Shown here: positions 2,606-47,486 of the stretch, piece after piece | Layout of the letters: each line of letters begins with the position of its first letter | Numbering within the stretch: position 1 is the stretch's first letter | From: Candidatus Woesearchaeota archaeon | Lineage (GTDB): Archaea; Nanobdellota; Nanobdellia; Pacearchaeales; GW2011-AR1 | Direction of reading: 5' to 3' | Assembly: GCA_964344105.1 (NCBI GenBank) | Contig: CAYFMD010000004.1 | Coordinates: 1 to 60,084 of the forward strand | Length of the DNA stretch: 60,084 nt | Translations under genes and position numbers: made by a program | Notes under the pieces: model-generated | What the model was told of the DNA's origin: nothing | The model's input: only the letters and a program-made list of their open reading frames with translations | The model's database searches: none

Positions 2606-5044
2606 TTATTGTTGTAAACTATTAAGGAATTTAATTACATTCCTCAAGTCAGAATCTCCTCCCTTTTCATCAATTAATAAGATTTTATTTGACTCGATTT
2701 CTTCTTTTGCGTTATTTATTAGGAATGATTTTAAGGCTCCATTGTAGTTAAATGCGATTCCAATTCCACCGTTTTTTGAAGTTTGTAAAATTCCCTGGCT
2801 ATCTCCGAATGTGTCTCCCATGTGGATAATATTTTGAGGATCTGCTACATTGAGATTATCTTTTGCATACTGAATTATTTTTTTAGATTTTGATTCTTCA
2901 CTTTCTACCCCTAAAATAATATTTCCTGTTGCTTTGATTTGGTCATATATTGGATCTGCATTTCTTCCCTTAAAGTAATCTATTACATAATCTTCTAGTT
3001 CTTTTTCTGATAAGGGTATACCATTTAGCTGGAATTCCAATATATTGCCTATTTGACCATGAATCTTATCTCTTCCAATCCTCTCCCTAATTGCATAGAT
3101 AGTTACGGAGTATCCTGTTGAATTTATTACCAAAGGGAAATTATTCTCTGATAGATAATTTGTGAATTCATTAAAACCGGTTACATAATCCATGTGCTTT
3201 AAAGTGTATTCTATTGCCTGTCTTAATGTTAGGCCATTAGTTAGTCTCCCTGCAAGATTGAATGCTTCTTCTATGCTAGCTTGACCATCAGTTTGTTTGT
3301 TGAATAATTCTTTGGCTTCAAGATATTCTTTTTCTCCGATGTAGATGCGGATCATATCGCTCATAGTATGTTGTTTTACTAGAGTGCCGTTTAAATCTGA
3401 GGAGAAAATTTTTGTTTCAAGATGTTTCTTGATTTTTCTTAGCAATTCATTAAATCTTTCCACCCTTAAAGATTCTTTTTTAACAGGGTGCATTTTTACA
3501 AATTTTCCATTTTCATCTTGATGGATTTCCTTTCTTTCGTAAGAACTATCTGTTGTAAAGGGTTGCCCTATTTTGTTTCTATAAGGGAATATTTTTATGT
3601 GAATGTGTTCATCTGGATGCTTGCATTTACCATAGGTTGCTATTGGTATTCTTTCACTGGATCCAGACTCTTGTTCAATTATTTTTCCTATTGCATAACT
3701 AATTTTGGCAAAGATTATTCCATAATTTTTAGCCAATTCTTGATTTTTGTTTATTTCTGAAAAGTATCTTAGATGAGAAGTAGGAATTATCTGGATGGAG
3801 AAATCTTCATTAATATCCCCTCCAGTTCTTGGAGAAAGTGTTGCAAACCATCCATTCTCTCCATCTCCAACCCTGCAGATAATTTGTGATCCATACTCAT
3901 TAGAATTGTTTTCCGATTGTGACTCCTTGCAGAATTGACATTCATCTCCTTCAAATTTGTTTTTTTCTGGAAGTATTATTTTGAGATATTCTTTTTCTCT
4001 TCTTTCATTTAGGTAGCTATCAAAATATCCAACTACTACCCGATAATATTCTTCACCATTTTTGTTATTTACTCTCTCTAGGATACCTTGTGCCTCTAAT
4101 GTTTCTCCAGAATATCCCAAATGGGCATAATCTCTTGAATAGAAAACTATTCTTTTTATTGGTACTTCTGAATAACCTTCCAGTATCTTAGAATTCTCTA
4201 TTTTATAAAAACCAGGCCGGACTATTGAGTTATAATGGTCTTTTATTTTTCCTTGGATTTTTATAGTGCCCAATTCCTCGTATTTTTCTTCCCCCCATTT
4301 AAACCACCTTTCATCTTCGTTTTCAACGCAAAATATTACGAATAAAGAATCTCCGAAATAACCCTCTGATTTCTTTCTAGACATTGAATGAAGGAATTCC
4401 TCTTTTGAGAAAAATTTAGACCTATTTCTTCTGTTGAAAAAATCTATCCATTGATCCTCTGTTTTCCATTTCAGTAGTGGATGGTTAACTGATTCTAAGA
4501 ATTCCATCAGCTTCCAGTACTTTGTCTTACCATGTATCACTATATTTATATCAGAAATTTTTGATGAGTAATGTCCTACAAGGCTAGAATATGTTATTCC
4601 CAAATCTTCTAATCTTAATCCACTTTGAAGGATAAGGTTTGTGAAATCATGAACTAGTTTTAAATGTGGATCGAGACTTTCTCTGCTTATGCTCATTAAT
4701 TCAGAGATTCCTCTTTTTGGAGAGTAGATTCTTTCTATCTGGTCTATAGGTAGTCCAAAAAATAGCCTATTGCCTTGATGAATATCACTTCTTAATATAT
4801 AGTGAGGGTAATTTTTTTTAAATTCCTCTAAATACCTTTTTAATTCCTCCTTATCAGACCAGAGATTCAACCGGTTCATCTTTCTGCCGGCTATAAATCT
4901 TGATTGCAATATAGAAGAACTGATCTTTTCTGTAGGGATGTATTTTGGCTTAACCAATATTGCGTTTAAAGGATGTTCATTCCCGTAAACTTGAAAATGC
5001 AATCCATCCTTACTTGTGACAATGGCTGATTCATAGAAATGCAT
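2606..5044 (-). CDS. Multidomain protein: Pol-beta-type nucleotidyltransferase + OB-fold module (aa 1-358), HIT-like domain (aa 366-530), HAD-like hydrolase domain (aa 545-812)
   Basis: NTase signature GHYSSKISDINIVIHG (DxN); OB-like IKIQGKIKDHYNSIVRPGFYKIENS; HIT-like CQFCKE + EHIHIKIFP; HAD motif I SSDLNGTL and motif IV MGDTFGDSQG. Confidence 0.6.
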   Translation of the reverse strand: MHFYESAIVTSKDGLHFQVYGNEHPLNAILVKPKYIPTEKISSSILQSRFIAGRKMNRLNLWSDKEELKRYLEEFKKNYPHYILRSDIHQGNRLFFGLPIDQIERIYSPKRGISELMSISRESLDPHLKLVHDFTNLILQSGLRLEDLGITYSSLVGHYSSKISDINIVIHGKTKYWKLMEFLESVNHPLLKWKTEDQWIDFFNRRNRSKFFSKEEFLHSMSRKKSEGYFGDSLFVIFCVENEDERWFKWGEEKYEELGTIKIQGKIKDHYNSIVRPGFYKIENSKILEGYSEVPIKRIVFYSRDYAHLGYSGETLEAQGILERVNNKNGEEYYRVVVGYFDSYLNERREKEYLKIILPEKNKFEGDECQFCKESQSENNSNEYGSQIICRVGDGENGWFATLSPRTGGDINEDFSIQIIPTSHLRYFSEINKNQELAKNYGIIFAKISYAIGKIIEQESGSSERIPIATYGKCKHPDEHIHIKIFPYRNKIGQPFTTDSSYERKEIHQDENGKFVKMHPVKKESLRVERFNELLRKIKKHLETKIFSSDLNGTLVKQHTMSDMIRIYIGEKEYLEAKELFNKQTDGQASIEEAFNLAGRLTNGLTLRQAIEYTLKHMDYVTGFNEFTNYLSENNFPLVINSTGYSVTIYAIRERIGRDKIHGQIGNILEFQLNGIPLSEKELEDYVIDYFKGRNADPIYDQIKATGNIILGVESEESKSKKIIQYAKDNLNVADPQNIIHMGDTFGDSQGILQTSKNGGIGIAFNYNGALKSFLINNAKEEIESNKILLIDEKGGDSDLRNVIKFLNSLQQ

Positions 5045-5045: not shown

Positions 5046-7484
5046 CTAAACTAGAGCCTTTAGATACTCTTTTTCTCCCCTATCATTAGTATAAGTATCA
5101 AAATACCCAAGGACTAATTGGTAGAAATCTCCTTCCTTGCTAGTTACCTTTTCTAATAATCCACAAGCTTCTATGTTTTCTCCTTTTTTGGCTTGGAGTA
5201 CGAACGGTCTTGACCAAGTCACAATTCTTTTTATTGGTACTTCCTCATGGCCTTCAATAATTTTAGAATTCTCTATCTCATAGAATCCAGGCCTTACAAT
5301 TGAATTGTAATGGTCTTGGATTGTTCCACGGATCTTTACAGTCCCTAATGGTTCGTGATTTGCTTCCCAATCATACCAGAATTCTTCTGGTTTTTCTACA
5401 ACAAATACTGAAAATACATGTCCATTGAAAAATCCATCATCTTTTTTTCTTACCATATTTAAAACGTATTCTTGTTCGTTATATAGTGTTGATACAACTC
5501 TTTCTCGGTAGTATTTAGCCCAATCTTCTGCAGACTTCCATTTTAGAGAAGGGTGTTTTACAGTCTCAAGGAAATTTATTACCTCCCATCCCTTTTCTTT
5601 CCCATAAACTATTATGTCAATATCTGATTTTCCTGGAGTGTAGTTTCCTAACAGAGTAGAATGGCTTATACCTATATCATTTAGGCTAACCCCTGTTTGT
5701 AAGATCATGTTTATGAAATCTTTTACCGATTTTAGGTAATCATCAAGATCTCCTGTTGGAATGCTCATTAATTGTTTTAGCCCGTCTCTGCAATCATATG
5801 ATTTTTTGATTTTTTCTTCAGGAAGTCCTAAGAACCAGTTTTTATGCTTATCACAATGATATATACATTCGGGATATTTACTCTTTAAAATTTTTAAATT
5901 TTCTTCAACAATTTCTTTTTTCTTGAAAAGATTAAATCTGTTCACAGATTTTGAAAACATGTATCTTTTCTTCATCCCTACAAATTCTAGTAAGTCTGTT
6001 GGAATGTACTTTGGTTTTCCTATAACAAATCCTTCTGGATGGCTTGATGCATAAACCTTAAATTGCATTCCGGTATGTGAATCCATTAAGCCTGCTTCAT
6101 GAAAATCCTTTTTCTGTACTAAAGATTTTGGTTTAATGTCTTTTGGTATCTCTACATCTAAAATGTCTAATATTGTTGGACAAATTTGTGCTATATCAAT
6201 TTCTCCAAGATTTCCTTTTTCTATGTCTTTGTCTTTGATTATAAATGATCCTTGTCTTGAGTGGCCGGCAGAATCTGCTCCTACTGCTGTTTCCCATGAA
6301 TAAAGGCCTTCTTGACCTAAATCAGGGTTGCTTGCCCACCTTAGATCGTCAAAGTATACAGTCAGATCTGGGCACTCGGGATTTGAAGTGTCTTCATAGA
6401 TATCTTCCTTATTGTAGACTTTTGTGTCTAAAGGATTTCCATTGTCATCCTTTATTTGCACAAGCTTTTCTGAGATTTCTGCTCTTATTTTTTGATAATC
6501 TTTTACCTTATCCTTGTTGATATAAACTCTTGCATTATAGGCTCCACCCCCCCATGCAATACTTTTTTCCATGTCTACAAATTCATTTTTGAATCTTGTT
6601 TTTTCTGAAAGATCTATCCCTTCTTTTAGGACCAAATATCCTTCTTTTATTAACCAGTTATTTATGTTTATTTTCCCCTCTTGTTTAACCATTCCGTGAT
6701 CAGAAGTAACAATAACTGATGTGTTTTCATCTAGGAGCCCTAGTAATTCCCCTAATTTCTTATCTAGATAGATGTAATAATCCTTCAATGCATTTTGATA
6801 TTCTGAATTTGGAACAAATTTCCTGTGAGTTTTATCGAAGTGGTGCCAAATCATATGTTGTAGCCTGTCTGATCCAATCATGACACTCATGAAAAAATCC
6901 CATTCTTCATTTACTAGTTGATCTTTTAGCAATTCTATTTGCATATCGGTCATTTTGTATACTTTTTCTATTAATTCGCTTATTGGAAGTCCCTTGTGCC
7001 CTCCAAGTCCAACTGCTACATCAAAGAATAAGTCTGGCTGCTCCATTGATTTTATTTTTTCTTTTAGGGATTCTGGATAGCAGCATGCGCCATTTAAGTT
7101 TGGAGTTAGAAATCCGCTCACCATTCTCCCATTTATTGGCTTAACTGGGTAACTTAAGGGCACGTAGAGTGCTATAGATTTCTTTTTTTCACCCAAAATA
7201 TCCCAAATTAACTTTTGCTTTATTTTTTTGGAATGCATTATCTGTGACTTTCCATTTTCATCCTTGTAAGTATAGCTAAATATACCAAGTTCACTTGGAT
7301 CCTTTCCAGAGAGCATAGAGTTCCATGCCATAATTGTCGAGGGAGGGATAGTGGAGTTTAGGCGTGCGTAACTTCCTTCTGAAGCTAGCTTGCTAAGATT
7401 AGGCAAGTCTTCCTTCCATTTATCAAAGATAAGCTCTGGTGGAGCGCCGTCGATACCAAATACAAATACCTTCTTTTGTGTCAT
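5046..7484 (-). CDS. Fusion of AlkP-superfamily phosphodiesterase domain (aa 1-457) and Pol-beta NTase + OB-fold module (aa 463-812)
   Basis: FVFGIDGAPP, PPSTIMAW, TSDHGM, DSAGHS AlkP ligand motifs; C-terminal half aligns with N-terminal half of ORF 2606-5044 (GNYTPGKSDIDIIVYG; VKIRGTIQDHYNSIVRPGFYEIENS). Confidence 0.6.
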   Translation of the reverse strand: MTQKKVFVFGIDGAPPELIFDKWKEDLPNLSKLASEGSYARLNSTIPPSTIMAWNSMLSGKDPSELGIFSYTYKDENGKSQIMHSKKIKQKLIWDILGEKKKSIALYVPLSYPVKPINGRMVSGFLTPNLNGACCYPESLKEKIKSMEQPDLFFDVAVGLGGHKGLPISELIEKVYKMTDMQIELLKDQLVNEEWDFFMSVMIGSDRLQHMIWHHFDKTHRKFVPNSEYQNALKDYYIYLDKKLGELLGLLDENTSVIVTSDHGMVKQEGKININNWLIKEGYLVLKEGIDLSEKTRFKNEFVDMEKSIAWGGGAYNARVYINKDKVKDYQKIRAEISEKLVQIKDDNGNPLDTKVYNKEDIYEDTSNPECPDLTVYFDDLRWASNPDLGQEGLYSWETAVGADSAGHSRQGSFIIKDKDIEKGNLGEIDIAQICPTILDILDVEIPKDIKPKSLVQKKDFHEAGLMDSHTGMQFKVYASSHPEGFVIGKPKYIPTDLLEFVGMKKRYMFSKSVNRFNLFKKKEIVEENLKILKSKYPECIYHCDKHKNWFLGLPEEKIKKSYDCRDGLKQLMSIPTGDLDDYLKSVKDFINMILQTGVSLNDIGISHSTLLGNYTPGKSDIDIIVYGKEKGWEVINFLETVKHPSLKWKSAEDWAKYYRERVVSTLYNEQEYVLNMVRKKDDGFFNGHVFSVFVVEKPEEFWYDWEANHEPLGTVKIRGTIQDHYNSIVRPGFYEIENSKIIEGHEEVPIKRIVTWSRPFVLQAKKGENIEACGLLEKVTSKEGDFYQLVLGYFDTYTNDRGEKEYLKALV

Positions 7485-8568: not shown

Positions 8569-9528
8569 TTAGTCTTTATTCCAAATGTGTTGGTTTTCTT
8601 TGTACCAGTTAATTGTTTGTTCTAAGGCCTCATTGAATTCATATTTTGGTTCCCAGTTAAGGAGTTTTTTTGCCTTTTTATTGGATCCGTAAAATCTCAT
8701 GGCCTCACTTTTATTATAGGATTTTGTGAATTTTATTTCTGAATTTGTTTTTGTTAATTCCTTAATTTTTAGAATAACATCTTTAACTTTTACCTCTTCA
8801 CCTGAGCAAATATTTATTGTTTCTCCAAATAGCTCTTTTTTTGGATTTTCTATTACTAGTTCAATTGCACTAATTAAGTCTTTAACATAAATGAAATCTT
8901 TAGTTTGTTGGCCAGGAGTTGTCTCTATTGGATTGTTATTTAGGCATTGTGTTATCATATAAGGGATTAACATAGTAGGAGATTGATTTTCTCCAAATAT
9001 TGAGAATGGTTTTAGTGTTGTTATTGGTAAACTATGTGCGTTATGGAAATATGTTGATAGTATTCTTATTTGTGTTTTGGATAAAGAGTATGGAGAAGTT
9101 GGTATTTCTTTTTGAGATTCTGTTAATGGAGATTTATTATTACCATATTCTTCTGCAGATCCAAAGTTGATGATTATTTTTAGATCTTCTAGATTTAAGC
9201 ATGCATTGTAGATATTTTTAGACATTTGGAGATTTTTCATTGAGTTATTTACTCCTTCTTGGTCTTTTCTTTTGTCTATTATGGATGCTAGATGGATTAT
9301 AACTGTTGGTTTTATATTTTCTATGAGAAGATTGACATGGTTGCTATTTGTTAAGTCTAGCTTATGGAAATCTATTTTTCCTCGAAGGTCTTTGAGAGAG
9401 GTTTCTTCCAAAGGCTTTCTAGAGGTGGTAGAAATTTTATAATTGTTTTTTAATAGTTCTCTAATTAGATTAGATCCTATGAATCCGTCCCCTCCAGTGA
9501 TTAGAACCCTATCTTCTTTCATAGTCAT
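8569..9528 (-). CDS. NAD-dependent sugar epimerase/reductase (extended SDR)
   Basis: VLITGGDGFIGSNL Rossmann motif, YSLSK catalytic YxxxK; follows rfbF-rfbG on the same strand (stop of rfbG overlaps its start). Confidence 0.8.
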   Translation of the reverse strand: MTMKEDRVLITGGDGFIGSNLIRELLKNNYKISTTSRKPLEETSLKDLRGKIDFHKLDLTNSNHVNLLIENIKPTVIIHLASIIDKRKDQEGVNNSMKNLQMSKNIYNACLNLEDLKIIINFGSAEEYGNNKSPLTESQKEIPTSPYSLSKTQIRILSTYFHNAHSLPITTLKPFSIFGENQSPTMLIPYMITQCLNNNPIETTPGQQTKDFIYVKDLISAIELVIENPKKELFGETINICSGEEVKVKDVILKIKELTKTNSEIKFTKSYNKSEAMRFYGSNKKAKKLLNWEPKYEFNEALEQTINWYKENQHIWNKD

Positions 9529-10585
9529 CTATTTGTTTGAGACATAGAATGTAAGGATCTTCATTTGATTTGTACCATGAAGCGGTTAGACCTATTGTCT
9601 CATTGATATTTAATTTTGGTTTCCACCCCAATTGAAAAATAGATTTTGAAATATCTAGGCTTAGTAATTTTGCTTCATGCGGTTCATTTGATTGATCATT
9701 TGAAACATCCCTCATAGTACCAGAACCCCACTCTTTTAGGAATTGGTTTACAATTACTCCTACTGGTTGGATTAATTCTGTTTTTGGCCCAAAGTTCCAT
9801 GCAGAGTCAACAGGTTCTTTCTGAAGAAGCTTTTTTCCTAGAAGGATGTAACCATCAAGAGGTTCTAGGACATGTTGCCAAGGTCTTGTTGATCTTGGAC
9901 TTCTAATTTCTATGTCTTGATTGTTTTTTAGGAATTTTACACAGTCTGGAATTAGCCTATCCCTAGACCAGTCCCCTCCACCAATTACATTTCCAGCCCT
10001 AGCACTTGCTATCATTTTCCCTTGTTCTTTAAGAAATGATTTTCTGTATGCATCTACTGCAATTTCTGCACAGGATTTGCTCCCACTATATGGATCCCTT
10101 CCACCAAGCTCATCATCCTCCCTATAACCCCATAACCACTCTTTATTCTTGTACACCTTATCTGTTGTTACCATTACAGCTGCCTTTACATCATTCTCCC
10201 TTATACATTCTAGAACATTTACAGTACCCATTAAATTGGCTTCAAAAGTTTCTCTAGGTTTTTCATAAGATGGCCTGACTAATGCTTGTGCAGCTAGATG
10301 AAATACTATCTCAGGTTGATGTTTATTGAAAACTTCTTTTAATCTTTGGAAGTCTGTTAGGTCTCCCCTTTCATCGATTATTTTTTCTGATAAATGGCAG
10401 TCTTTGAAAAGTTTCTCATTTTCAGATTCCTCTAATGAAAATCCTATGACTTTTGCTCCAAGTTTGTTGAGCCAAATTGTTAACCAAGTCCCTTTAAATC
10501 CTGTATGTCCTGTTATTAGGACCTTTCTCCCATTCCAAAAAGTATCTAATCCCAGATCTTCCATTTTGCATTCCCTTCCTCCCAT
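9509..10585 (-). CDS. rfbG: CDP-glucose 4,6-dehydratase
   Basis: GRKVLITGHTGFKGTWLTIWL, YSGSK catalytic motif, length and context typical of RfbG; start probably the internal MEDLGL. Confidence 0.85.
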   Translation of the reverse strand: MGGRECKMEDLGLDTFWNGRKVLITGHTGFKGTWLTIWLNKLGAKVIGFSLEESENEKLFKDCHLSEKIIDERGDLTDFQRLKEVFNKHQPEIVFHLAAQALVRPSYEKPRETFEANLMGTVNVLECIRENDVKAAVMVTTDKVYKNKEWLWGYREDDELGGRDPYSGSKSCAEIAVDAYRKSFLKEQGKMIASARAGNVIGGGDWSRDRLIPDCVKFLKNNQDIEIRSPRSTRPWQHVLEPLDGYILLGKKLLQKEPVDSAWNFGPKTELIQPVGVIVNQFLKEWGSGTMRDVSNDQSNEPHEAKLLSLDISKSIFQLGWKPKLNINETIGLTASWYKSNEDPYILCLKQIDDYERR

Positions 10586-11331
10586 AAGGCATTTAACTCA
10601 TCCATATCTTTATGAGTATCCATGCACCTCCAAAAATCATCATGTTTGTATATTGCCAAGTTTCCTTCTCTTGATAATCTTTCTAAGGGTTCTCTTTCTA
10701 AGGAAGTTTTATCATCTGCTATATAATCAAAGATAGAAGGTTCAAAAACAAAAAAGCCTCCATTGATGTACCCTTCACTAACCTGAGGTTTTTCTTCAAA
10801 ACTAACTACAAGATTTTCCCTTACATTTAGTTCTCCAAATCTTGAAGAAGGTCTAACGCCAGTAACTGTCGCAAATTTCCCATGAGATTCATGAAATTCC
10901 ATTAGCTTGTTTATATCTATATTGGCAACTCCATCCCCGTAAGTAACCATAAACCTATTGTCCCCAATTACTTGCTTTAATCTTTTTATCCTTCCACCAG
11001 TCAGTGTATTTAACCCAGTGTCAACTATAGTTATATTGAACATTTCTTGATTATTTGATAGGAGATCTATTTTGTTATCTTTCAAATTGATTGTGAAATC
11101 ATTATGCATAAGGATGAAGTTCATGAAATATTGTTTTATATCTTCTACCTTGTAGCCACCAGCTATTACAAAATCTGTATAACCATATTTAGCATAGATT
11201 TTCATTATATGCCAAATTATTGGCTTTCCTCCAATCTTCACCATGGGTTTTGGTTTAAATTCAGTTTCTCCCTTTAATCTAGTTCCAAATCCTCCTGCTA
11301 GGATAACTATCTTGCAATTTTGTTCATTCAT
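10546..11331 (-). CDS. rfbF: Glucose-1-phosphate cytidylyltransferase
   Basis: KIVILAGGFGTRLKGETEFKPKPMVKIGGKPIIWHIM is the classical RfbF N-terminus. Confidence 0.9.
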   Translation of the reverse strand: MNEQNCKIVILAGGFGTRLKGETEFKPKPMVKIGGKPIIWHIMKIYAKYGYTDFVIAGGYKVEDIKQYFMNFILMHNDFTINLKDNKIDLLSNNQEMFNITIVDTGLNTLTGGRIKRLKQVIGDNRFMVTYGDGVANIDINKLMEFHESHGKFATVTGVRPSSRFGELNVRENLVVSFEEKPQVSEGYINGGFFVFEPSIFDYIADDKTSLEREPLERLSREGNLAIYKHDDFWRCMDTHKDMDELNALWEEGNAKWKIWD

Positions 11332-12302
11332 TTTAATATATCTCCTTTGTCATGGAAAAGCTTTACACTATATCCTTCTAAAATTGGCCACCCATGAGGA
11401 TATCCATAATTTGAATCATGAGTATGAATTAGATGTTTATTTCTAACAAAGAACTTGTTTAAATGAGATTCATCAAGCCAGGTTGCAATTATTTTATTTT
11501 TGAAATCATTTTCGATCCCTTCATTTATTCTTTTGCACATTTCTATCACATAATTTGTTTTTCCACCCCAAAAGCATGCTTGTCTGTAAATAGATCGGTC
11601 ATCATTTTCTGTTAATGCTGCTTTTGATTCTGAGTTTAATTCAAACTGGCCTGGAGCATTTAGAAAGCATGGATGTCTCATTGCAAATATTGGTTGAGTG
11701 TGGCAAAAAAATTCTTCCTCTGTTGTAATGTCTTTTGCATACATATCTGAATCTATGTACACAACATGCGAATAATCCTTTAGTTTCTCTGCTATGCTTG
11801 CAATAAATTTGAATTTAGATAGAGTCATGACTGCAGGTCCGCCATATTTAACTTGGATTATTTTTACATTGTCCTTATCTTTAAAATAATCATAATCGAT
11901 TTGGTCCGTAAATGCAAAAAAATCTTTTTCAGTTTCTGGCAAGAAGTTTTGATTTATTGTTGAATAGAATCTTGGGAAAAACTTGACATAGTCTTGTGAT
12001 CCCATAAATATTATTGCTATCTTTTCACATTTCTGTTGTTGGAATACAGGATTCTTATTTTTTAGAGAATTCTTTAGGGCGCTCCTGGATCTTAGGAATT
12101 TTAGATATCTTACAAATTTATCTCCAAAAACATTTTCAATTAAGTATTTGAGAGGATGTCTTTTTTTAACTAGCTCTATGTTTAGACTTCTTATTCCATC
12201 CATCGCCTCCCATTGGAAATTACCCTTTTTATCAGCCTTATTTTCCATAGATAACATTGAGTATGTTAATTTAAAAAGATTGTTGGAGTGCGTTTCACAC
12301 AC
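11328..12302 (-). CDS. GT6-family (ABO / alpha-1,3-Gal(NAc)-transferase-like) glycosyltransferase
   Basis: FFAFTDQ, VVYIDSDM (DxD), RHPCF, CFWGG and ATWLDESHLNKFF match hallmark GT6 blocks of vertebrate GTA/GTB; real start probably the internal MLSMENK. Confidence 0.8.
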   Translation of the reverse strand: MCETHSNNLFKLTYSMLSMENKADKKGNFQWEAMDGIRSLNIELVKKRHPLKYLIENVFGDKFVRYLKFLRSRSALKNSLKNKNPVFQQQKCEKIAIIFMGSQDYVKFFPRFYSTINQNFLPETEKDFFAFTDQIDYDYFKDKDNVKIIQVKYGGPAVMTLSKFKFIASIAEKLKDYSHVVYIDSDMYAKDITTEEEFFCHTQPIFAMRHPCFLNAPGQFELNSESKAALTENDDRSIYRQACFWGGKTNYVIEMCKRINEGIENDFKNKIIATWLDESHLNKFFVRNKHLIHTHDSNYGYPHGWPILEGYSVKLFHDKGDILK

Positions 12303-12309
12303 TCCTGCC

Positions 12310-12362
12310 CCCTACTTTTTATCCCCTACCCACCAATCCATTCTCTTCAATAAAAAGTAGGG
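12310..12362. repeat. Perfect 13-bp inverted repeat (ccctactttttat / ataaaaagtaggg) with a 27-nt C-rich spacer
   Basis: Read directly, in the divergent region between the GT6 gene and the radical SAM gene. Confidence 0.7.
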
Positions 12363-12402
12363 TTGGGATAGATGGGTTGATCATAATTAACCTTAAAAAA
12401 CC

Positions 12403-13389
12403 TTGAATCATGTACTAGAATTAGTGAAAATGAATCTAAAAAGACAGGTATATTTGATGCTTCCTAAACCATTGCAGAAAAAGACTAAAGATTTTTACTA
12501 TGGTAAATGGATTGATAGTTTGTATAAAAGAAAATATAGAAAATTCTATGGGTTGAATGATTTTTTTGATACAATAGCCCTTGAAACTACTACTTATTGT
12601 AATTTGAGATGTTCTTTTTGTCCAAATAGTAATCATGAAAGAGGGTTGCAAAAAAATGAGAAGAAGATGGATAAGGAATTGTTCAAGAAAATAATTAATG
12701 AATTGGCTGAGATTGGATATAGGGGGAAAGTTGCGTTGTATTCATATGGAGAGCCTTGTACTGATGAAAGATTGCCAGAACTAGTTCAATATGCCAAGCA
12801 AAAATTGCCAAACGCCTTTGTGGAGATTAATAGTAACGGATTTTTGTTGACAGTTGAGTTATATCAGAAGCTGGTTAGATCAGGAATAGATAAGATTTAT
12901 GTTAGCCAATATGCAGATAAGATGCCTCCAAGTATTGTTAAGGTATATGATTTCCTAAGGGAGAATCCAGAATTTCCAGATAGGATAAAATATAGGATAT
13001 TTAATGCAGAGACATATCCATTGCTTTCAAATAGAGGAGGAGAGATTGAGATGGAAGAATCTGTAAATTATGAAAGACCTATTTGTGGCTATCCACATCA
13101 CGCGCAGACAATAGATTGGGAAGGTAACTGGGTTTTATGTTGTAATGATTACCATAGTAGTGTTAAATTTGGGAATCTAGCTAAAGAGACTATAATGCAG
13201 ATATGGAATAAGCCTTACTTCAAAAAGATAAGAGAAGATACAAATAATGGAATTTATGATTTAGAAATCTGCAAAATTTGTGTGGGTCAGAAAAGTGCTA
13301 AGAAGGATCAAGATCTAGAAAGTAATAATTTGGTTACTATAAGATCTTCTTTACCTAGTTCTCCAAGCACAAGTAATGCTAGTGCATAA
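12403..13389 (+). CDS. Radical SAM / SPASM-domain protein
   Basis: CNLRCSFC (Cx3Cx2C) cluster motif; Cys-rich C-terminal region (CGYP..VLCCNDY..CKIC); track start is TTG, ATG at 12430 is more likely. Confidence 0.75.
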   Translation: MNHVLELVKMNLKRQVYLMLPKPLQKKTKDFYYGKWIDSLYKRKYRKFYGLNDFFDTIALETTTYCNLRCSFCPNSNHERGLQKNEKKMDKELFKKIINELAEIGYRGKVALYSYGEPCTDERLPELVQYAKQKLPNAFVEINSNGFLLTVELYQKLVRSGIDKIYVSQYADKMPPSIVKVYDFLRENPEFPDRIKYRIFNAETYPLLSNRGGEIEMEESVNYERPICGYPHHAQTIDWEGNWVLCCNDYHSSVKFGNLAKETIMQIWNKPYFKKIREDTNNGIYDLEICKICVGQKSAKKDQDLESNNLVTIRSSLPSSPSTSNASA

Positions 13390-14822
13390 ACTATAACTCC
13401 AATTAGGATTGTTGCTATAGCTATTGAGAGAGTTATTGCTGTAAACATTGATAGGAAATATTTTAGTGCTATGAGCATTATTACGCTTGCTAATGTTGAA
13501 GTTATTAGAGAAGTTAAAGGCAGTTTGTTTTTGAAATCTCTGCTAAAGTGTCTTAGGGCCATTATGAAATAGATTAGCCAGCTAAGTAGGGTTGCTATTG
13601 CTGCACCCTTTATTGCCATTTCTGGAGAGATTTTCAAAAAGTGCCTTATGAATAAGAAATTTAGGATTACATTTATTATACTTACTGTGAATATTATTTT
13701 TGCGAATACTTCGGGCATTTTCTTTGCGGAATAAAGATGCAATAATATGGATAGCGATACTATTGGAAGAATTGTGAAACCTAAAATGTATAATGGGCCT
13801 GCTGCCAATACATACTGGGCTCCAAAAAATAGCTTTGTGAAGTATTCCCCTAAGACTAATAGGCCAAATGAAGAAGGAATTGATAGTATTATTACAAACC
13901 TTAATACTTTATCGAATACTTTAACAGTTTCTTCCTTGCTTATTTTGGTGAAAATTGGTAATAAGACCATGTTTGGTGCTGCTAAGAAGGTTGTTATTCC
14001 AATTATCATTGAAAATGCTGCTTTATAGAATCCGACATATTCTACTAAGCTGGCTCCTAAGAAGATTCCAAGCATTATTGAGTCTACATTCATGAAGAAT
14101 ACGCTAGAAATGCTTGATATTGTTAGAAATCTTACAAACCTTAGAACTGATTTCTTATCAATATGGTCGGGATGTTTTATGAATAACTCTGGAAAATTTT
14201 TCTTGAAGTACATTAAAATTATAATTAATGCTATAAGGTGGATTAATGCTAATCCTAAAAAAATTCCTAGAACCTGATATTTAGCTGCTACGAAAATAAA
14301 GAGAGTTGCTGCAAAAATTATCTTTAATAATTGTACCAATGTCTCCCGAAGACTTATGAATTGGGCTTTTTCTAGGGTGTAGAATAACTGATTATGAAAA
14401 ACCTCAAAAGATAGTACAAATATGTAGAAAGAGGCGGCCATCAAAGGAATGAATAGATCCGCGTTTTTGAAAACGTAATTTGAAATAGGGTAGGCTAATA
14501 ATATTAGTAATATGAAGAATGTTACAGAAAGAACGATCTTTATTTTTAATAGGTATTTGTAATAGGCCCCTATCCTTTTCTTATCATTGTTTAGTGCCGC
14601 AGAGATGAATCTGACTGCAGAAGCATTTATTCCTATATCTGCAAATATATAGAAAAATAGGCCTATGGACATTGCTATTGAGAAAATTCCGTATCTTTCT
14701 GGCAATAGCATCCTTGCTATCAGTATTGTAAAGAATAATGCTCCAAATCTACTAATTAGAGTTGCTGTGAACCCCCAGAATGAGTTTTTTACTATTCTCT
14801 TGCCAAGGTTTTCTTCGTTCAT
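13308..14822 (-). CDS. Wzx-type oligosaccharide flippase (MOP superfamily)
   Basis: 504 aa, about 12-14 predicted TM helices, typical polysaccharide-biosynthesis-protein N-terminus; glycan cluster context. Confidence 0.7.
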   Translation of the reverse strand: MNEENLGKRIVKNSFWGFTATLISRFGALFFTILIARMLLPERYGIFSIAMSIGLFFYIFADIGINASAVRFISAALNNDKKRIGAYYKYLLKIKIVLSVTFFILLILLAYPISNYVFKNADLFIPLMAASFYIFVLSFEVFHNQLFYTLEKAQFISLRETLVQLLKIIFAATLFIFVAAKYQVLGIFLGLALIHLIALIIILMYFKKNFPELFIKHPDHIDKKSVLRFVRFLTISSISSVFFMNVDSIMLGIFLGASLVEYVGFYKAAFSMIIGITTFLAAPNMVLLPIFTKISKEETVKVFDKVLRFVIILSIPSSFGLLVLGEYFTKLFFGAQYVLAAGPLYILGFTILPIVSLSILLHLYSAKKMPEVFAKIIFTVSIINVILNFLFIRHFLKISPEMAIKGAAIATLLSWLIYFIMALRHFSRDFKNKLPLTSLITSTLASVIMLIALKYFLSMFTAITLSIAIATILIGVIVYALALLVLGELGKEDLIVTKLLLSRS

Positions 14823-14852
14823 CCTAGATAGTAAGTTAGTGAGTTTAATAAC

Positions 14853-15506
14853 TTAATTCCTAATGACAACAACTCTTGCAAATAAAGAAGGATAGAAATT
14901 TGCTAAAGAATCTATTATGCTGTCAAAAATTGTGGATAGGAATTTTTTGAGAGGAGTTCCATGGACACTAGATCTTGAATGCCATCGATATTCTATCTCT
15001 TTCACATCTATGTATGTTGAGAAGAAGTTTACGATATCCTTAACCCTTGGAGTTTGTATATGGCCTGCACGCTCTACAACTGCAAAAGGAGGAAGTTGTA
15101 CAGAAGTTTTTCTTCCAATTAAGAAATTGAATCTGCAATAAAAGTTATATTCGTTTGGCATAGATAGAAAGAATCTTGCATCTGGTTTAGCAATCCTAAG
15201 TATTTCTTTTATTACCTTGTGAGGCCAAATAGTATGTTCTAATGTTTCAAGACATAGGATAATATCGAACTGATTGTCTTCTATTGGGATAGGGAGTTTG
15301 TTTAGATCACAAGAATAATCCTGATGGCCATCGAAGTCTAATCCATAATATTCAACATTATCTGGTAAGAATTTTTCTAAGTATCTTTCTTTTGCAGCTC
15401 CGATATCTAATAGTTTGTATTTTCTATCTTTTGGTAGGTTCCAAATGGTTCTTAAGGGCATGACAAGTTGTTTTCCATCTGCACGTATCTTTTTTTCATC
15501 GAACAT
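14853..15506 (-). CDS. Class I SAM-dependent methyltransferase
   Basis: KLLDIGAAKERY motif I-like, DIILCLETLEH motif, LSMPNE. Confidence 0.65.
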   Translation of the reverse strand: MFDEKKIRADGKQLVMPLRTIWNLPKDRKYKLLDIGAAKERYLEKFLPDNVEYYGLDFDGHQDYSCDLNKLPIPIEDNQFDIILCLETLEHTIWPHKVIKEILRIAKPDARFFLSMPNEYNFYCRFNFLIGRKTSVQLPPFAVVERAGHIQTPRVKDIVNFFSTYIDVKEIEYRWHSRSSVHGTPLKKFLSTIFDSIIDSLANFYPSLFARVVVIRN

Positions 15507-15639
15507 GCATAAGGCTGTTAATTAGATATTTTAAAGATTTATGTTGTTTTTTAGTTATTGGTTAATAAGATATTTTTAAGAGTCTAAGAATATTCTCTAT
15601 TAAAGCAAATATTATAAAGGGCGCATTTATTGCATTGCT

Positions 15640-16236
15640 ATGGATTATGTGCTTTTCGATGTAGGCAATGTTATTGTTAATGCAAATCATGAATTGACTC
15701 ATGACTTTTTACAGGAAAGAGGTGTGCCTGGGAGTGACGCAATTAGGTTTTATGATAATGGTAGTGCTTATGGAAATTTTGAGAGGGGTAGAATTAGTGC
15801 CGCTGAGTTTTGTGGAGAATTAAATGCTACAATGAATACGCGCCTTTCTGAAGATAAATTGAGACAAGCTCACCATGTACATATTTATGAGGTTGCTCCA
15901 GGAATCATCGATCAGATTGGAAGAGTCCCATATGCCAAAAGAGGGGTGTTAACGGATACTAATGAGTGGCAAAATCAGAGAGTTGCTCAGTTAATTAATC
16001 TTGAAGAATATTTCCCTCAAGAGAGGATATTTAAGTCTAACCAGATGGGTCATATGAAAATAGATGCAGAGTGTTTTCCATATGTTCTTGAAAGATTAGG
16101 GGTTTCTGGAGAGAGGGTTTTATTGATAGATGACAGTAACCCAAAAATAGAATTAGCTAGGGAAAATGGTTTGCAAACAATATTGTTTGAGAATGTTGAT
16201 CAGTTAGCTGAAGAATTAGGACAATATGGTTTTTGA
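15640..16236 (+). CDS. HAD-superfamily hydrolase
   Basis: VLFDVGNVIV motif I region, VLTDTN motif II-like, LLIDDS motif IV. Confidence 0.6.
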   Translation: MDYVLFDVGNVIVNANHELTHDFLQERGVPGSDAIRFYDNGSAYGNFERGRISAAEFCGELNATMNTRLSEDKLRQAHHVHIYEVAPGIIDQIGRVPYAKRGVLTDTNEWQNQRVAQLINLEEYFPQERIFKSNQMGHMKIDAECFPYVLERLGVSGERVLLIDDSNPKIELARENGLQTILFENVDQLAEELGQYGF

Positions 16237-16283: not shown

Positions 16284-16997
16284 ATGGAAGAGAGTACAGA
16301 AAATTTTGAAAAGGAGGTTTCAAAATTCCCTGAGAATGACTTTGATAATAACTCTGAATCAAAGTCATCTGTAAAGAAGTTGATAATATCTCCTCATGTT
16401 GATGATGAGATTTTGGCTTGCGGGGGAATTTTAGATTCAGATAGTTTTGTGTATTATTGTGGAATTGATGAGAGCAAAGTTGCTCCAGATCCCGTGCATA
16501 GGATTCCAATGGGAGCTAGAGAAGCTGAATTGAAAAGAGTTGCTGAGTTTCTTGGATATAGATATGAGATTAATAAAAATACCAAAGTTAACTTCTATAG
16601 TGAATCTCAACATGAATTGAAAGATAAATTTGAGAGGTTAATTAACGAATTGAGGCCTGAAATGATATTTATCCCAATCCCTAGCTATAATCAAGATCAT
16701 AAAGTGATCTATGATGCATTGCAGGTTGCGCTAAGACCTCATGATAAGAATTTTTTTGTAAAGAGAGTTTTGTTATATGAACAGCCACATTCTATTATGT
16801 GGGAGCCTAATGATTATAGGCCAAATTATTTTGTTCCAATAGATATTGAAAGGAAGATTAGTGCTTATAAGATGCAAGAATCGCAGGTTAGAGCCTTTAG
16901 ATCTCCAGAACTTGTTAAGGCGATTGCAAAACTTAGGGGAGGTCAAGCTGGATGCGATTATGCAGAAGGTTTTTTTATCCAGAGGTGGGTTGAATGA
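16284..16997 (+). CDS. PIG-L/LmbE-family N-acetylsugar deacetylase
   Basis: LIISPHVDDEILACGG is the PIG-L zinc-binding signature. Confidence 0.75.
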   Translation: MEESTENFEKEVSKFPENDFDNNSESKSSVKKLIISPHVDDEILACGGILDSDSFVYYCGIDESKVAPDPVHRIPMGAREAELKRVAEFLGYRYEINKNTKVNFYSESQHELKDKFERLINELRPEMIFIPIPSYNQDHKVIYDALQVALRPHDKNFFVKRVLLYEQPHSIMWEPNDYRPNYFVPIDIERKISAYKMQESQVRAFRSPELVKAIAKLRGGQAGCDYAEGFFIQRWVE

Positions 16998-17713
16998 AAT
17001 TTGCATATTTTGGATATAGATCCTGGGCAGAGGATATTCTTAGAAATTTGGAAGATAGTGAATTTGAGATAGATGCGTTCACCATTCCTGATACAGAATA
17101 TAAGTCTAATAAATTTAGAGGTGAAGATATGAAAGTCTTTAATCCAAAAGAGATTGCTGATTTGGATTTAGGGGATTATGATGCATTGCTATTTTACGGA
17201 TGGTCTTGGATAATCAAACAAGATATTGTTGATAGCCAGGTATGTATTTGTCTACATCCATCTCCTTTGCCAAAATATAGGGGAGGCAGTCCAATACAAC
17301 ACCAGATAATTAATGGAGAGGATGAAAGTGCAGTTAGTTTGTTTAAGATGGGCAAGGAATTGGATGATGGGCCAATTTACTATCAAGAAAATTTTTCTTT
17401 AGATGGGAGGTTGAAGGATATTTTTGATAGAATAGTTGAGATTGGAGGCAGGCTGACTATCAAATTACTAAAAGATTTTGTTGAAAATAAGGCTAATCCG
17501 GTTGAGCAAGATCAGAGCTTGGCTACAGAATATAAGAGAAGAAAGCCAGAGGAAAGTGAGTTAACTGCTGATAAGATTGCAGAAATGACTGGTAGGCAGA
17601 TATATGATTTTATTAGAGCGCTAGAGGATCCGTATCCTAATGCTTACATTTTAGGCAGTGATGGAAAGAAGGTTTTACTGAAATTAGCTGATTTTGAAGA
17701 TGGTACTGATTGA
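16994..17713 (+). CDS. Formyltransferase (Fmt/sugar N-formyltransferase-like)
   Basis: CLHPSPLPKYRGGSPIQHQIING and ELDDGPIY match the formyl_trans_N catalytic His/Asp region. Confidence 0.75.
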   Translation: MKFAYFGYRSWAEDILRNLEDSEFEIDAFTIPDTEYKSNKFRGEDMKVFNPKEIADLDLGDYDALLFYGWSWIIKQDIVDSQVCICLHPSPLPKYRGGSPIQHQIINGEDESAVSLFKMGKELDDGPIYYQENFSLDGRLKDIFDRIVEIGGRLTIKLLKDFVENKANPVEQDQSLATEYKRRKPEESELTADKIAEMTGRQIYDFIRALEDPYPNAYILGSDGKKVLLKLADFEDGTD

Positions 17714-18548
17714 TGGAAAAGAAGTAGCTGGAAAAATATTAGATAAACTTAGATTAGAGGTTGCTGAGATGGATAGAAAGCCTGGATTAGCGATTGTCCT
17801 TGTGGGAGATAATCCGGCATCCCAGGTTTATGTTAGGATTAAGCAAAAAAGATGTCAGGAAATTGGAATTGAATGCAAGAACATTACTTTAGGCAAGGAA
17901 GTTAGTGAAAGAGAGGTTTTAGAGGAAATTGGAAGGTTAAATTTTGATTCAGAGGTTAATGGGATTATAGTGCAGCTTCCTCTTCCAGAGCATATTGATA
18001 AAAGAAAAGTTTTGAATGCTATTGATCCTAAGAAGGATGTGGATGGGTTGCATCCATTTAATATGGGGAGTTTGATGATTAATGATAATAAGTTGTTGCC
18101 TGCTACTGCTTCAGGAGTTATGAAGCTTTTAGAGAGCAGTGGAATTGATCTTTCTGGAAAGCATGCTTGTGTTATTGGGAGAAGTGAGTTAGTGGGAAAG
18201 CCGGTTTCTTTATTGTTGCAGCAGAAAAATTGTACAGTTACTATGTGTCATTCGGGCACTGAAAGACTTTCAGATATCACTAAGTTTTCAGATATTGTTG
18301 TTGTAGCTGCTGGAATGCCGGGATTGCTTGCTAAGGAAATGATTAAAGAAGGTGCAGTTGTTATTGATGTAGGCATTAGTAAAGTTGATGATAAGATTGT
18401 TGGAGATGTTGATAAGGATGTTGAAGAAGTTGCAAGTTATTTTACTCCTGTTCCAGGAGGGGTTGGACCGATGACAGTTGCCTGTCTGTTAGAGAATGTT
18501 GTTAAGGCTTGTAAAGAGGATGCCTCTCAAAAAGCCTCTCCACAATAG
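17694..18548 (+). CDS. folD: Bifunctional methylenetetrahydrofolate dehydrogenase/methenyl-THF cyclohydrolase
   Basis: LVGDNPASQVYVRIKQK, IVQLPLP, DVDGLHPFN, GRSELVGKPV, TPVPGGVGPMT are canonical FolD blocks. Confidence 0.9.
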   Translation: MKMVLIDGKEVAGKILDKLRLEVAEMDRKPGLAIVLVGDNPASQVYVRIKQKRCQEIGIECKNITLGKEVSEREVLEEIGRLNFDSEVNGIIVQLPLPEHIDKRKVLNAIDPKKDVDGLHPFNMGSLMINDNKLLPATASGVMKLLESSGIDLSGKHACVIGRSELVGKPVSLLLQQKNCTVTMCHSGTERLSDITKFSDIVVVAAGMPGLLAKEMIKEGAVVIDVGISKVDDKIVGDVDKDVEEVASYFTPVPGGVGPMTVACLLENVVKACKEDASQKASPQ

Positions 18549-29792: not shown

Positions 29793-30625
29793 TGCAATTT
29801 GGGTTAACAGGAAATAGGGGATTAATAGGAAGTTTTCTTGAAAAGAGATTGGTCGAAGAAGGTCATGAAGTGGTTCTTAAGGTTGATAAGATGGATGGGA
29901 CTGAAGTTTCAGATTTAGAAGATATGGATTCTGAAAGAAAGATAGATATTTTTATACATTGTGCGGCTTCTTGTAAGATTAATAAGATAGTTGAAAATCC
30001 CTCCATTGGTATGAAGAATGCCCTTGATACATTTAGTGCTTTAGAGTTTTGTAGGAAAAATAACATTAAGAGATTTGTTTACTTTTCTTCTTCCAGGGTA
30101 TTGAGTGAAGAGAGTAATGCTTATACTGCCGGGAAATTATTTGGAGAGGAACTATGCAAAGCATATAATGAATGTTATGGTATTGACTATATTATTATTA
30201 GGCCGTCTACAGTTTATGGGCCTACTGAAGACAGGACAAATAGATTGATGAATATTTTCATTAACAATGCTTTAAGAGGAGATGACTTGAAGATTTATGG
30301 AGATCCAGAAACAAAGACATTAGACTTCACATATGTAGGAGATATTGTTGATGCTATAATGCTTGCCTTGAAAGCAGATTGGTGTAAGGAGTATAATGTA
30401 AGTGGAGGAGAGGAAGTAAGACTTTTTGATCTTGCAAGATTTATAATTGAAGAAACTGAGAGCACTAGCAAGATTAGTATTTTAGATGAAGAAACTGCTC
30501 AGCCTCAAAAAGTTAGTTTAGATTTAAGTGAAATTAGAAAGTTGGGTTATTCTCCGAAGGTGAGTCTTTGGGAAGGTGTTCGGAGGAACATTGAGTTTCT
30601 AAAAAGAAATCAGGGATTTCTTTAA
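29792..30625 (+). CDS. NAD-dependent epimerase/dehydratase (short SDR)
   Basis: GLTGNRGLIGSFL, YTAGK catalytic motif. Confidence 0.7.
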   Translation: MQFGLTGNRGLIGSFLEKRLVEEGHEVVLKVDKMDGTEVSDLEDMDSERKIDIFIHCAASCKINKIVENPSIGMKNALDTFSALEFCRKNNIKRFVYFSSSRVLSEESNAYTAGKLFGEELCKAYNECYGIDYIIIRPSTVYGPTEDRTNRLMNIFINNALRGDDLKIYGDPETKTLDFTYVGDIVDAIMLALKADWCKEYNVSGGEEVRLFDLARFIIEETESTSKISILDEETAQPQKVSLDLSEIRKLGYSPKVSLWEGVRRNIEFLKRNQGFL

Positions 30626-47139: not shown

Positions 47140-47334
47140 TTAGAACTTCTTAAACTTGTTAACTAGCTCTAGAGTATCAACCTGACCTAGGAAAACTGAT
47201 CTGCAGCAGTATCTCTCTAGACCTATCTCATCCATAACTTTCTTAGAATCTTCTGTTTCTGTTCTTTTCTTGAAATCTTCCCATAGGTGACCTATTGGTT
47301 TTCCGCAGCTGAAACATCTTACTGGTATTATCAT
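47140..47334 (-). CDS. rpoN: DNA-directed RNA polymerase subunit N (Rpo10)
   Basis: MIIPVRCFSCGKPIGHLWEDF...YCCR zinc-binding pattern, 64 aa. Confidence 0.9.
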   Translation of the reverse strand: MIIPVRCFSCGKPIGHLWEDFKKRTETEDSKKVMDEIGLERYCCRSVFLGQVDTLELVNKFKKF

Positions 47335-47348
47335 TTTCTCGTGAATAT

Positions 47349-47467
47349 GAAGAAAGACAACTCGTGAATTTCACTTCCCTTCGGAAACTATTTCCACAAC
47401 ATAACCTGCTTAGCTTCCCTATTCGGAATGGTAAGGGGCGTTTCCAAGTTATTATGGTCGTCTTCAA
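47349..47467 (-). rRNA. 5S ribosomal RNA (ends uncertain by about 5 nt)
   Basis: Minus strand reads ..CCCUUACCAUUCCGAAUAGGGAAGCUAAGCAGG.., matching the conserved 5S loop B/helix III region; terminal helix GAAGACGAC/GUUGUCUUU closes the molecule. Confidence 0.75.
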
Positions 47468-47486
47468 TATTAGTGTGAAATTAGTG

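Follow-up and report, generated by a model that had tools for sequence, protein, structure and literature searches.

A DxD-type member of the ABO blood-group glycosyltransferase family (GT6) in a surface-glycan locus of a DPANN archaeon

We analysed a stretch of DNA of 60,084 nt (contig CAYFMD010000004.1, positions 1–60,084, assembly GCA_964344105.1, Candidatus Woesearchaeota archaeon), here called the window, in which a first-pass annotation had pointed out a glycosyltransferase of the ABO blood-group family, GT6. The longest open reading frame (ORF) at this position, 11328–12302 on the reverse strand, starts with GTG and encodes 324 amino acids (aa); residues are numbered accordingly. It is the first gene of an operon shared with genes of the CDP-glucose pathway, which serve the synthesis of a CDP-6-deoxyhexose, and roughly the first 31 kb of the window form a surface-glycan locus. 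All five strings that had been quoted as hallmark blocks of the family (FFAFTDQ, VVYIDSDM, RHPCF, CFWGG and ATWLDESHLNKFF) were found in the ORF, and a HMMER alignment confirmed their block-by-block correspondence to GT6 enzymes.

The predicted protein, referred to as window GT6, has a sole Pfam match, PF03414 (Glyco_transf_6), with 55.8 bits and an E-value of 4e-15 at a gathering cutoff of 25; the match begins at residue 87 of the ORF and covers profile positions 70–275 of 313. Searching all PDB sequences with phmmer returned GT6 chains only, among them BoGT6a of Bacteroides ovatus (E 4e-15), human ABO (about 2e-12) and bovine alpha-1,3-galactosyltransferase (alpha3GT, about 5e-8). The best family profile overall was phrog_3317, a phage glycosyltransferase family, with 174 bits. 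An AlphaFold2 (AF2) model built from an alignment of 46 sequences reached a pLDDT of 87.8 and a pTM of 0.84. When this model was compared with the PDB by Foldseek, the top 50 matches were all GT6 structures (GTB, GTA and BoGT6a) with E-values down to 2e-20, target-normalised TM-scores of 0.67–0.88 and rmsd values of 2.2–3.1 Å, save for three near 6 Å. The phmmer matches to BoGT6a and human ABO, the Foldseek matches and phrog_3317 delimit a catalytic domain of GT-A fold at residues 94–324 (11331–12023, reverse strand). Membership in GT6, as annotated in the first pass, is therefore supported by a Pfam score above the cutoff and by PDB matches in sequence and fold that belong to GT6 throughout.

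The catalytic motifs are intact. The metal- and UDP-binding DxD motif, D184-S-D186 (11745–11753, reverse strand), is aligned by HMMER with D211-V-D213 of the human enzyme and with N95-A-N97 of BoGT6a, and neither D184 nor D186 varies within the archaeal clade to which the protein belongs. The same alignment places H210-P211 on human H233-P234 and F244-W245-G246-G247 on human F269-F270-G271-G272. The motif of the catalytic glutamate, W275-L-D-E278-S-H-L-N-K283 (11454–11480, reverse strand), corresponds to W300-H-D-E303-S-H-L-N-K308 in the human enzyme and to W189-H-D-E192 in BoGT6a; the equivalent catalytic glutamate is E303 in GTA, E317 in alpha3GT and E192 in BoGT6a. This motif is invariant in the clade, and 48 diverse sequences all share D277, E278, S279 and N282. 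Y105 (equivalent to the uracil-stacking Y126) and K163 (equivalent to the basic R188) are also conserved. Close to the C-terminus, K319 occupies the position after the residues aligned to BoGT6a 228–230 and is conserved in at least 90% of the alignment, NxN bacteria included. A C-terminal lysine at the diphosphate (K359 in alpha3GT, K231 in BoGT6a) has been described as "conserved in all GT6" (PMC3961637). All residues defining GT6 catalysis are present and under purifying selection, and window GT6 is a genuine, selectively maintained member of the ABO blood-group family in a tiny, uncultured DPANN archaeon.

Selection was assessed as Nei-Gojobori dN/dS against an 85%-identical GT6 copy on the metagenomic contig L090. 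The ratio was 0.06 over the gene as a whole, 0.045 within the catalytic domain and 0.065 within residues 19–93. For codons 1–18 it was 1.7, at a dS of only 0.09, so that this segment is conserved at the level of DNA and not at the level of protein. Both 85%-type homologues have isoleucine in place of M16, the start proposed by the gene caller, whereas M19 is conserved and marks the start of the homologues with 61% identity. Because of the high dN/dS ratio, the unconserved M16 and the conserved M19, codons 1–18 are probably non-coding and the coding sequence probably spans 11328–12248 on the reverse strand (306 aa plus stop), with its true start at M19 (12248); the ORF and the PF03414 match are in line with this delimitation. 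Within codons 1–18, about 25 nt upstream of the M19 ATG, we read a TATA-box-like element, TTTTTAAATTAA (12266–12277, reverse strand), which may represent an archaeal promoter giving rise to a leaderless or short-leader transcript.

Between the probable start and the catalytic domain lies a clade-specific N-terminal extension of about 75 residues (residues 19–93; 12024–12248, reverse strand), which is conserved in the homologues P0002–P0006 and falls outside the Pfam GT6 match. It carries a net charge of +9, and the AF2 model shows helices at residues 41–48, 50–59 and 61–81. A transmembrane anchor was considered and rejected: the highest 19-residue Kyte-Doolittle mean in window GT6 is 0.85, and no transmembrane segment was found.

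The same contig encodes the archaeal markers TYW1 (TIGR03972, 329 bits at a cutoff of 318), Dph2 of diphthamide synthesis and an archaeal-type SecD/SecF, in agreement with the archaeal origin assumed in the first pass. TYW1 and Dph2 are markers of archaea and eukaryotes. Named homologues of TYW1 at 63–72% identity are nearly all labelled "Candidatus Pacearchaeota", "Nanoarchaeota" or "archaeon GW2011_AR19/AR1". Among species-representative genomes, only one Pacearchaeota metagenome-assembled genome (MAG; 48%) and one Woesearchaeota MAG (44%) carry a close GT6 relative. The markers, together with the relatives of TYW1 and GT6, identify the host as a low-GC DPANN archaeon of the Pacearchaeota/Nanoarchaeota type. 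The sequence itself was present in metagenomic DNA runs only.

To place the protein within its family we searched 1.84 billion representative proteins exhaustively with HMMER and obtained 2,415 GT6 clusters at 50% identity. With this number of clusters the family is not "mainly vertebrate" with scattered bacterial members, as had been stated in the first pass. GT6 relatives are also encoded on 510 viral stretches in IMG/VR, and 72 GenBank phage records have a GT6 match at 31–36% identity (tblastn). These are mostly cyanomyoviruses (61 Synechococcus and 4 Prochlorococcus phages), and several of the matches are already annotated "glycosyltransferase family 6". In the 150 best representatives of the 50%-identity clusters the motif aligned to D184-x-D186 reads DxD in 113 and NxN in 37; viral motifs and neighbourhoods were counted in the best 80 of the 510 IMG/VR stretches (L007–L086), and DxD is present in every one of these 80. 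Thiyagarajan et al. (2012) distinguished three GT6 clades, of which the prokaryotic/phage DxD clade comprises cyanophage P-SSM2, marine-metagenome homologues and PaGT6 from Parachlamydia acanthamoebae (PMC3516806); PaGT6 depends on Mg2+/Mn2+ (PMC3516806; PMC3961637). Given this published clade and the counts among representatives and viruses, DxD is the expected state for the branch and no metazoan signature, and the earlier view of an unusual, metazoan-type motif has to be abandoned. Judged by the published description, window GT6 would stand in this known branch beside P-SSM2 and PaGT6. In contrast, the archaeal host seems to be new: Pham et al. (2014) stated that GT6 genes "have not been found in ... 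archaea" (PMC3961637), and the literature searched for GT6 together with DPANN or archaea held no description of an archaeal GT6, which agrees with the first-pass expectation that such a gene would be unusual.

Within the catalytic core, identity to window GT6 amounts to 51–85% in the core archaeal clade, 46% for the Woesearchaeota copy and 37–47% for metagenomic and viral relatives, compared to 30% for Chitinophaga (NxN), 27% for human ABO and 24% for BoGT6a. A neighbor-joining (NJ) tree of 178 sequences recovered the core archaeal clade in 153 of 200 bootstraps and placed human ABO with the NxN bacteria, apart from the archaeal clade. The nearest non-archaeal DxD domains (P0008–P0029, all metagenomic) are often fused to other domains, namely a GT11 fucosyltransferase, GT2 plus Gly_transf_sug, GT4, a methyltransferase, or a PLOD-type glycosyltransferase with a C-terminal PqqD domain. 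These fusions indicate that the GT6 domain is widely used as a module in prokaryotic glycan clusters, and the combination of PLOD-type glycosyltransferase and PqqD hints at glycosylation of peptides (RiPP-like). The GT6 of P0010 (L088, L089) was observed in a prokaryotic glycan cluster. The GT6 gene of Synechococcus phage S-CAM9 (L096, 148317–149033) lies amid another glycosyltransferase gene, a UDP-glucose 4-epimerase gene and an NDP-sugar pyrophosphorylase gene.

The neighbouring genes agree with the glycan-biosynthesis cluster described in the first pass, since CDP-hexose genes, a Wzx flippase gene and further glycan genes surround GT6. Downstream on the same strand follows a glucose-1-phosphate cytidylyltransferase of the RfbF type (10546–11331; TIGR02623, 344 bits at a cutoff of 300), whose ATG overlaps the GT6 stop codon by 4 bp (ATGA). 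It is followed by a CDP-glucose 4,6-dehydratase of the RfbG type (9509–10585, reverse strand; TIGR02622, 477 bits at a cutoff of 278) and by an NDP-sugar epimerase/reductase of the short-chain dehydrogenase/reductase (SDR) family (8569–9528, reverse strand). The latter matches the Pfam families Epimerase and GDP_Man_Dehyd and no specific NCBIfam equivalog, and presumably completes the CDP-6-deoxyhexose. Upstream of GT6 and divergent from it lies a gene for a BtrN-like radical-SAM/SPASM enzyme (rSAM; 12403–13389, forward strand), recognised by the Pfam families Radical_SAM and SPASM and by its best PDB match, the sugar/cyclitol dehydrogenase BtrN (E 1e-24). The adjoining gene (13308–14822, reverse strand) encodes an oligosaccharide flippase of the MOP/Wzx type with Pfam Polysacc_synt and NCBIfam Wzx-like matches. 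Past rSAM and Wzx the run also includes a methyltransferase gene, and farther away we found genes for a PIG-L deacetylase, a formyltransferase, FolD, a GT2, PseB/FnlA-like and RmlD-like proteins, PAP2, a UbiA prenyltransferase, additional SDRs and a UDP-glucose dehydrogenase. Neither a further GT6 copy nor a GT11 gene was detected in the 60-kb window, the sole match being meaningless (19% identity, E 0.007), and no GDP-fucose genes were identified among its annotated genes.

We compared this arrangement with other loci carrying GT6 relatives, in which GT6 is 85% identical (L090) or 61% identical (L004, L091) to the window copy, or which belong to the Pacearchaeota MAG (L001) and the Woesearchaeota MAG (L002). 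The order Wzx/rSAM/GT6/rfbF/rfbG/SDR is retained at both 85% and 61% GT6 identity (L090; L004 and L091), and the SDR gene is syntenic in L004 and L090. The steadiest neighbour of the clade is rSAM, which adjoins GT6 in L004, L091, L090, L001 and L092 and is 47–90% identical across the loci (L001 10513–11346, L004 7008–7904, L090 4970–5887, L092 909–1763). Wzx orthologues were found near GT6 in L001, L002, L004, L090 and L093, and the pair of rSAM and GT6, usually with Wzx, is retained in the Pacearchaeota MAG and in L092 as well. CDP-hexose genes were not found near GT6 in L001, L092, L002 or any of the 80 viral loci. We thus rejected the idea that GT6 and CDP-hexose genes are generally linked; such linkage is confined to the window, L090, L004, L091 and the distant L003. 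The last of these is a locus on a Candidatus Nanopelagicaceae chromosome (OZ254124.1, 40191–56865; a freshwater actinobacterium) with a distant DxD GT6 of 23% identity lying within about 6 kb of rfbF/rfbG homologues (41–42% identity), a second, independent co-occurrence. The archaeal host, the conserved basic extension of about 75 residues and the fixed linkage to a BtrN-like rSAM and Wzx seem to be undescribed so far.

Further features of the window were recorded in their own right. Overlapping genes at 16284–18548 (forward strand) encode a PIG-L-type de-N-acetylase, a formyltransferase and FolD. The trio is kept in L004 and L090 and appears to form a complete pathway to an N-formylated amino sugar, with deacetylation followed by formylation and FolD supplying 10-formyl-THF. 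Two neighbouring genes on the reverse strand (2606–5044 and 5046–7484) encode proteins of exactly 812 aa each with a common module of about 356 residues (45% identity), which is N-terminal in one protein and C-terminal in the other and has no Pfam match. An alkaline-phosphatase-type "Phosphodiest" domain occurs in one of the two and in a third gene at 96–1499 (forward strand). In place of these phosphodiesterase-like genes, L004 carries a phosphonate pathway 3' of the GT6 cassette (11744–15940) consisting of a PEP mutase fused to a cytidylyltransferase, a TPP decarboxylase, an Fe-ADH and a CDP-alcohol phosphatidyltransferase, suggesting a phosphonate or phospho-decoration of the glycan. The ORF for the UDP-glucose/GDP-mannose dehydrogenase (30622–31518, reverse strand) is just 298 aa long and matches the profile of its N-terminal domain from position 72 onwards; it is either truncated or mis-started. 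At the other end of the window, a solitary 5S rRNA gene (47352–47465) is followed by a tyrosine integrase (48068–49393, phrog_1) and by NYN and AAA_14/DUF4143 proteins. The segment from about 47300 to 58000 holds several ORFs without family match and one weak match to the phage-membrane family DUF7442, its GC content is 27–30% at 52–58 kb, and it may be an integrated element.

We next consider what the enzyme transfers, and to what. The donor-sugar pocket loop, Y239-R-Q-A-C-F-W-G-G (11562–11588, reverse strand), is aligned to human FYYMGAFFGG, so that Q241 takes position 266 and C243 position 268. In ABO enzymes these two positions govern the choice of donor, with Leu/Gly for GalNAc and Met/Ala for Gal. 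Neither A- nor B-synthase residues are present at 266/268 of window GT6. Instead, the signature Y-x-Q-[GA]-C-x-W-G-G is common to the S-CAM9 enzyme and most DxD relatives, and the glutamine at position 266 is conserved in at least 90% of the DxD group. A side chain larger than alanine at position 268 argues against accommodation of an N-acetyl group, and a UDP-hexose is favoured by the Gln/Cys pocket shared with the S-CAM9 enzyme, whose gene adjoins that of UDP-glucose 4-epimerase (GalE). With low confidence, the pocket residues suggest a UDP-hexose (Gal or Glc) rather than a HexNAc as donor. Among the positions that contact the Fuc-alpha-1,2-Gal acceptor in GTA and GTB (H233, T245 and D326), the alignment shows H233 conserved as H210, T245 replaced by Q219 and D326 by P302, as in BoGT6a; the position after P302 is occupied by H, W, G or E in different members of the clade.

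These positions bear directly on the proposal made in the first pass that the enzyme caps the organism's surface glycan with a blood-group-like epitope. In this interpretation window GT6 would be an A/B-synthase-like alpha-1,3-Gal/GalNAc transferase acting on Fuc-alpha-1,2-Gal, acquired horizontally in a "metazoan" DxD form. All characterised GT6 enzymes transfer alpha-1,3-Gal or GalNAc, H210-P211 and the catalytic motif are conserved, some close DxD relatives such as P0009 are fused to GT11 fucosyltransferase domains, and PaGT6, the one prokaryotic DxD enzyme that has been characterised, converts H-type acceptors to A-antigen (PMC3516806). However, the Gln/Cys pair is neither of the GalNAc type (Leu/Gly, Ala/Gly) nor of the B type (Met/Ala), the T245 and D326 contacts are replaced, and DxD is the common state in prokaryotes and phages. 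The conserved partners of the gene are CDP-hexose genes, a BtrN-like rSAM and Wzx; human ABO, at 27%, is farther away than metagenomic, viral and cyanophage relatives at 35–47%; and the gene shows no GC anomaly. Since two of the three acceptor contacts are unconserved and neither GT11 nor GDP-fucose genes were found in the window, an H-antigen-type acceptor and hence a blood-group-like epitope are unsupported, and we regard this proposal as unlikely.

The interpretation we prefer, and consider probable, is that window GT6 is a functional, metal-dependent, retaining GT-A enzyme of CAZy family GT6 which belongs to the prokaryote/phage branch, with its minimal catalytic domain and DxD, rather than to the vertebrate or the Bacteroides NxN branch, and which acts in the surface-glycan locus of a low-GC DPANN archaeon. 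From the enzymology of GTA/GTB, alpha3GT, BoGT6a and PaGT6 it is known that the DxD motif binds Mg2+/Mn2+ and the UDP diphosphate, that the lysine stabilises the leaving group, that the glutamate is essential and that the reaction proceeds with retention. By analogy, a soluble enzyme kept at the membrane through its basic N-terminal extension would bind a UDP-hexose through Mg2+/Mn2+ on D184/D186. Retaining transfer involving E278, with K319 stabilising the leaving group, would then create an alpha linkage, possibly alpha-1,3, on a lipid-linked oligosaccharide at the cytoplasmic face, and the product would be flipped by Wzx towards the cell envelope.

Several observations weigh against this interpretation or parts of it. 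The NCBIfam model of a bacterial subfamily, NF041524 ("family 6 glucosyltransferase"), scores 137 bits and does not reach its curated cutoff of 250, so that it does not claim window GT6; the named carriers of this label are NxN proteins of the Bacteroidota type, e.g. from Chitinophaga. Human H301 of the WHDES motif is replaced by leucine. The protein ends five residues past K319, and K324 is the only candidate counterpart of the other basic residue found at the C-terminus of BoGT6a (R243) and alpha3GT (R365). A strongly amphipathic helix in the extension is unsupported (hydrophobic moment, muH, 0.09–0.2 at residues 61–81), and because of this low value membrane tethering is only a guess, as is the idea that the basic helical extension may replace the C-terminal basic-hydrophobic-basic anchor of the NxN bacterial enzymes. 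For the archaeal clade, as for the whole group with the Gln/Cys pocket, donor, acceptor and linkage are extrapolated by analogy, and the close coupling to the CDP-sugar genes might point to a donor other than a UDP-sugar. In the NJ tree the Woesearchaeota position was recovered in 22 of 200 bootstraps, and the sister group of the core clade and all deep nodes are without bootstrap support. As only the core clade is supported, we make no claim about the direction of horizontal transfer. Of the horizontal acquisition suggested in the first pass, a recent event finds no support in the data, as the GC content of the gene (31.6%) is close to that of the window (33.4%) and the cassette is syntenic across diverged relatives, while phages, bacteria and DPANN archaea may plausibly have exchanged the gene in the distant past.

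A more far-reaching view, to which we assign only a small chance, is that GT6 forms a lineage of the DPANN archaea's own. It would be defined by the basic N-terminal module, by an obligate pairing with a BtrN-like rSAM acting as sugar oxidase and by new donor/acceptor chemistry, such as the use of a CDP-activated 6-deoxyhexose as donor or of a radical-SAM-oxidised sugar as acceptor, and would build a surface cap for the interaction of episymbiont and host. GT6 would then be an ancient phage/prokaryote/archaeal family and vertebrate ABO a late offshoot.

The adjacent pathway raises a separate point, namely a switch of nucleotide by which GT6 would transfer the CDP-6-deoxyhexose made by the co-transcribed RfbF, RfbG and SDR proteins. 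This would fit the 4-bp overlap of the GT6 stop with the rfbF start, the gene order GT6-rfbF-rfbG-SDR kept at 85% and 61% identity (L090; L004, L091), the distant Nanopelagicaceae GT6 (L003) within about 6 kb of rfbF/rfbG, and pocket residues unlike those of every characterised GT6. However, the same pocket signature occurs in L001, L002 and viral relatives without rfbF/rfbG nearby and in the cyanophage homologue next to GalE, the uracil-stacking tyrosine (Y105) and K163 are conserved, and the GT2 encoded in the window could use the CDP-sugar. We know of no GT6 with a non-UDP donor and hold such a switch to be rather improbable. A non-archaeal origin of the gene, through misassembly or misbinning of bacterial or viral DNA or through an integrated virus, is very improbable. 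In its favour, the closest relatives beyond the clade are carried by phages or have no known origin, a PHROG is the family profile that scores best, and an integrase with a low-GC segment is present at 48–58 kb. However, GT6 lies more than 30 kb from that segment in a setting of ordinary glycan genes whose GC is uniform, phage structural genes were not observed in its vicinity, the same cassette recurs on independent contigs of 27, 72, 146 and 339 kb and in MAGs labelled Pacearchaeota and Woesearchaeota, and TYW1, Dph2 and SecDF are encoded on the same contig.

In summary, window GT6 is a new member of the known prokaryote/phage DxD branch with a new host domain, a clade-specific N-terminal module and gene partners of its own. 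If confirmed, it brings the ABO-type GT6 family into the third domain of life and adds evidence that the metal-dependent DxD form is a widespread ancestral state in phages and uncultured prokaryotes and no hallmark of vertebrates, which bears on the long-running debate over an acquisition of ABO-type genes by vertebrates through horizontal transfer. It provides no evidence for blood-group mimicry. For the biology of DPANN archaea, to whose lifestyle contacts between their cell surface and the host are central, it flags a conserved surface-glycan cassette of Wzx, a BtrN-like rSAM and GT6, with or without CDP-6-deoxyhexose genes.

Compared with known systems, window GT6 shares the GT-A fold, DxD, H233-P234, FxGG and W-x-D-E-S-H-L-N-K with human GTA/GTB and bovine alpha-1,3-galactosyltransferase, as reflected in Foldseek E-values of 2e-20. 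It differs from these enzymes in its low identity of 22–27%, in having no type II Golgi transmembrane/stem region, in carrying C/Q/C instead of G-S/L-M/G-A at human positions 235/266/268, in the leucine at H301 and in the unconserved positions T245 and D326. BoGT6a and other NxN bacterial enzymes (PDB 4AYJ, 4CJ8) are close in fold, with target-normalised TM-scores of 0.82–0.88 and rmsd values of about 2.3 Å, and BoGT6a is the best PDB match by sequence (E 4e-15) with conserved catalytic glutamate and C-terminal lysine (K231, equivalent to K319). However, BoGT6a is an NxN, metal-independent enzyme with a core identity of 24%, its pocket reads A-G-G instead of Q-A-C, and it has a C-terminal basic-hydrophobic-basic membrane anchor (PMC3516806) where window GT6 has a basic extension at the N-terminus. 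The closest resemblance is to the prokaryote/phage DxD clade of cyanophages P-SSM2 and S-CAM9 and PaGT6, which likewise consists of a minimal catalytic domain with intact DxD and lacks the C-terminal anchor. Identity to the S-CAM9 GT6 is 35–36% (35% to Synechococcus phage GT6 by tblastn), and the Y-x-Q-G/A-C-x-W-G-G pocket and the WxDESHLN motif are common to both. The metal dependence measured for PaGT6 would be expected here by analogy, whereas its GalNAc/H-antigen specificity is not carried over. What sets window GT6 apart from the phage/PaGT6 clade is its DPANN host, its basic N-terminal extension, the WLDES variant with leucine in place of histidine and the linkage to genes for a BtrN-like rSAM and Wzx, joined in one sub-clade by CDP-hexose genes.

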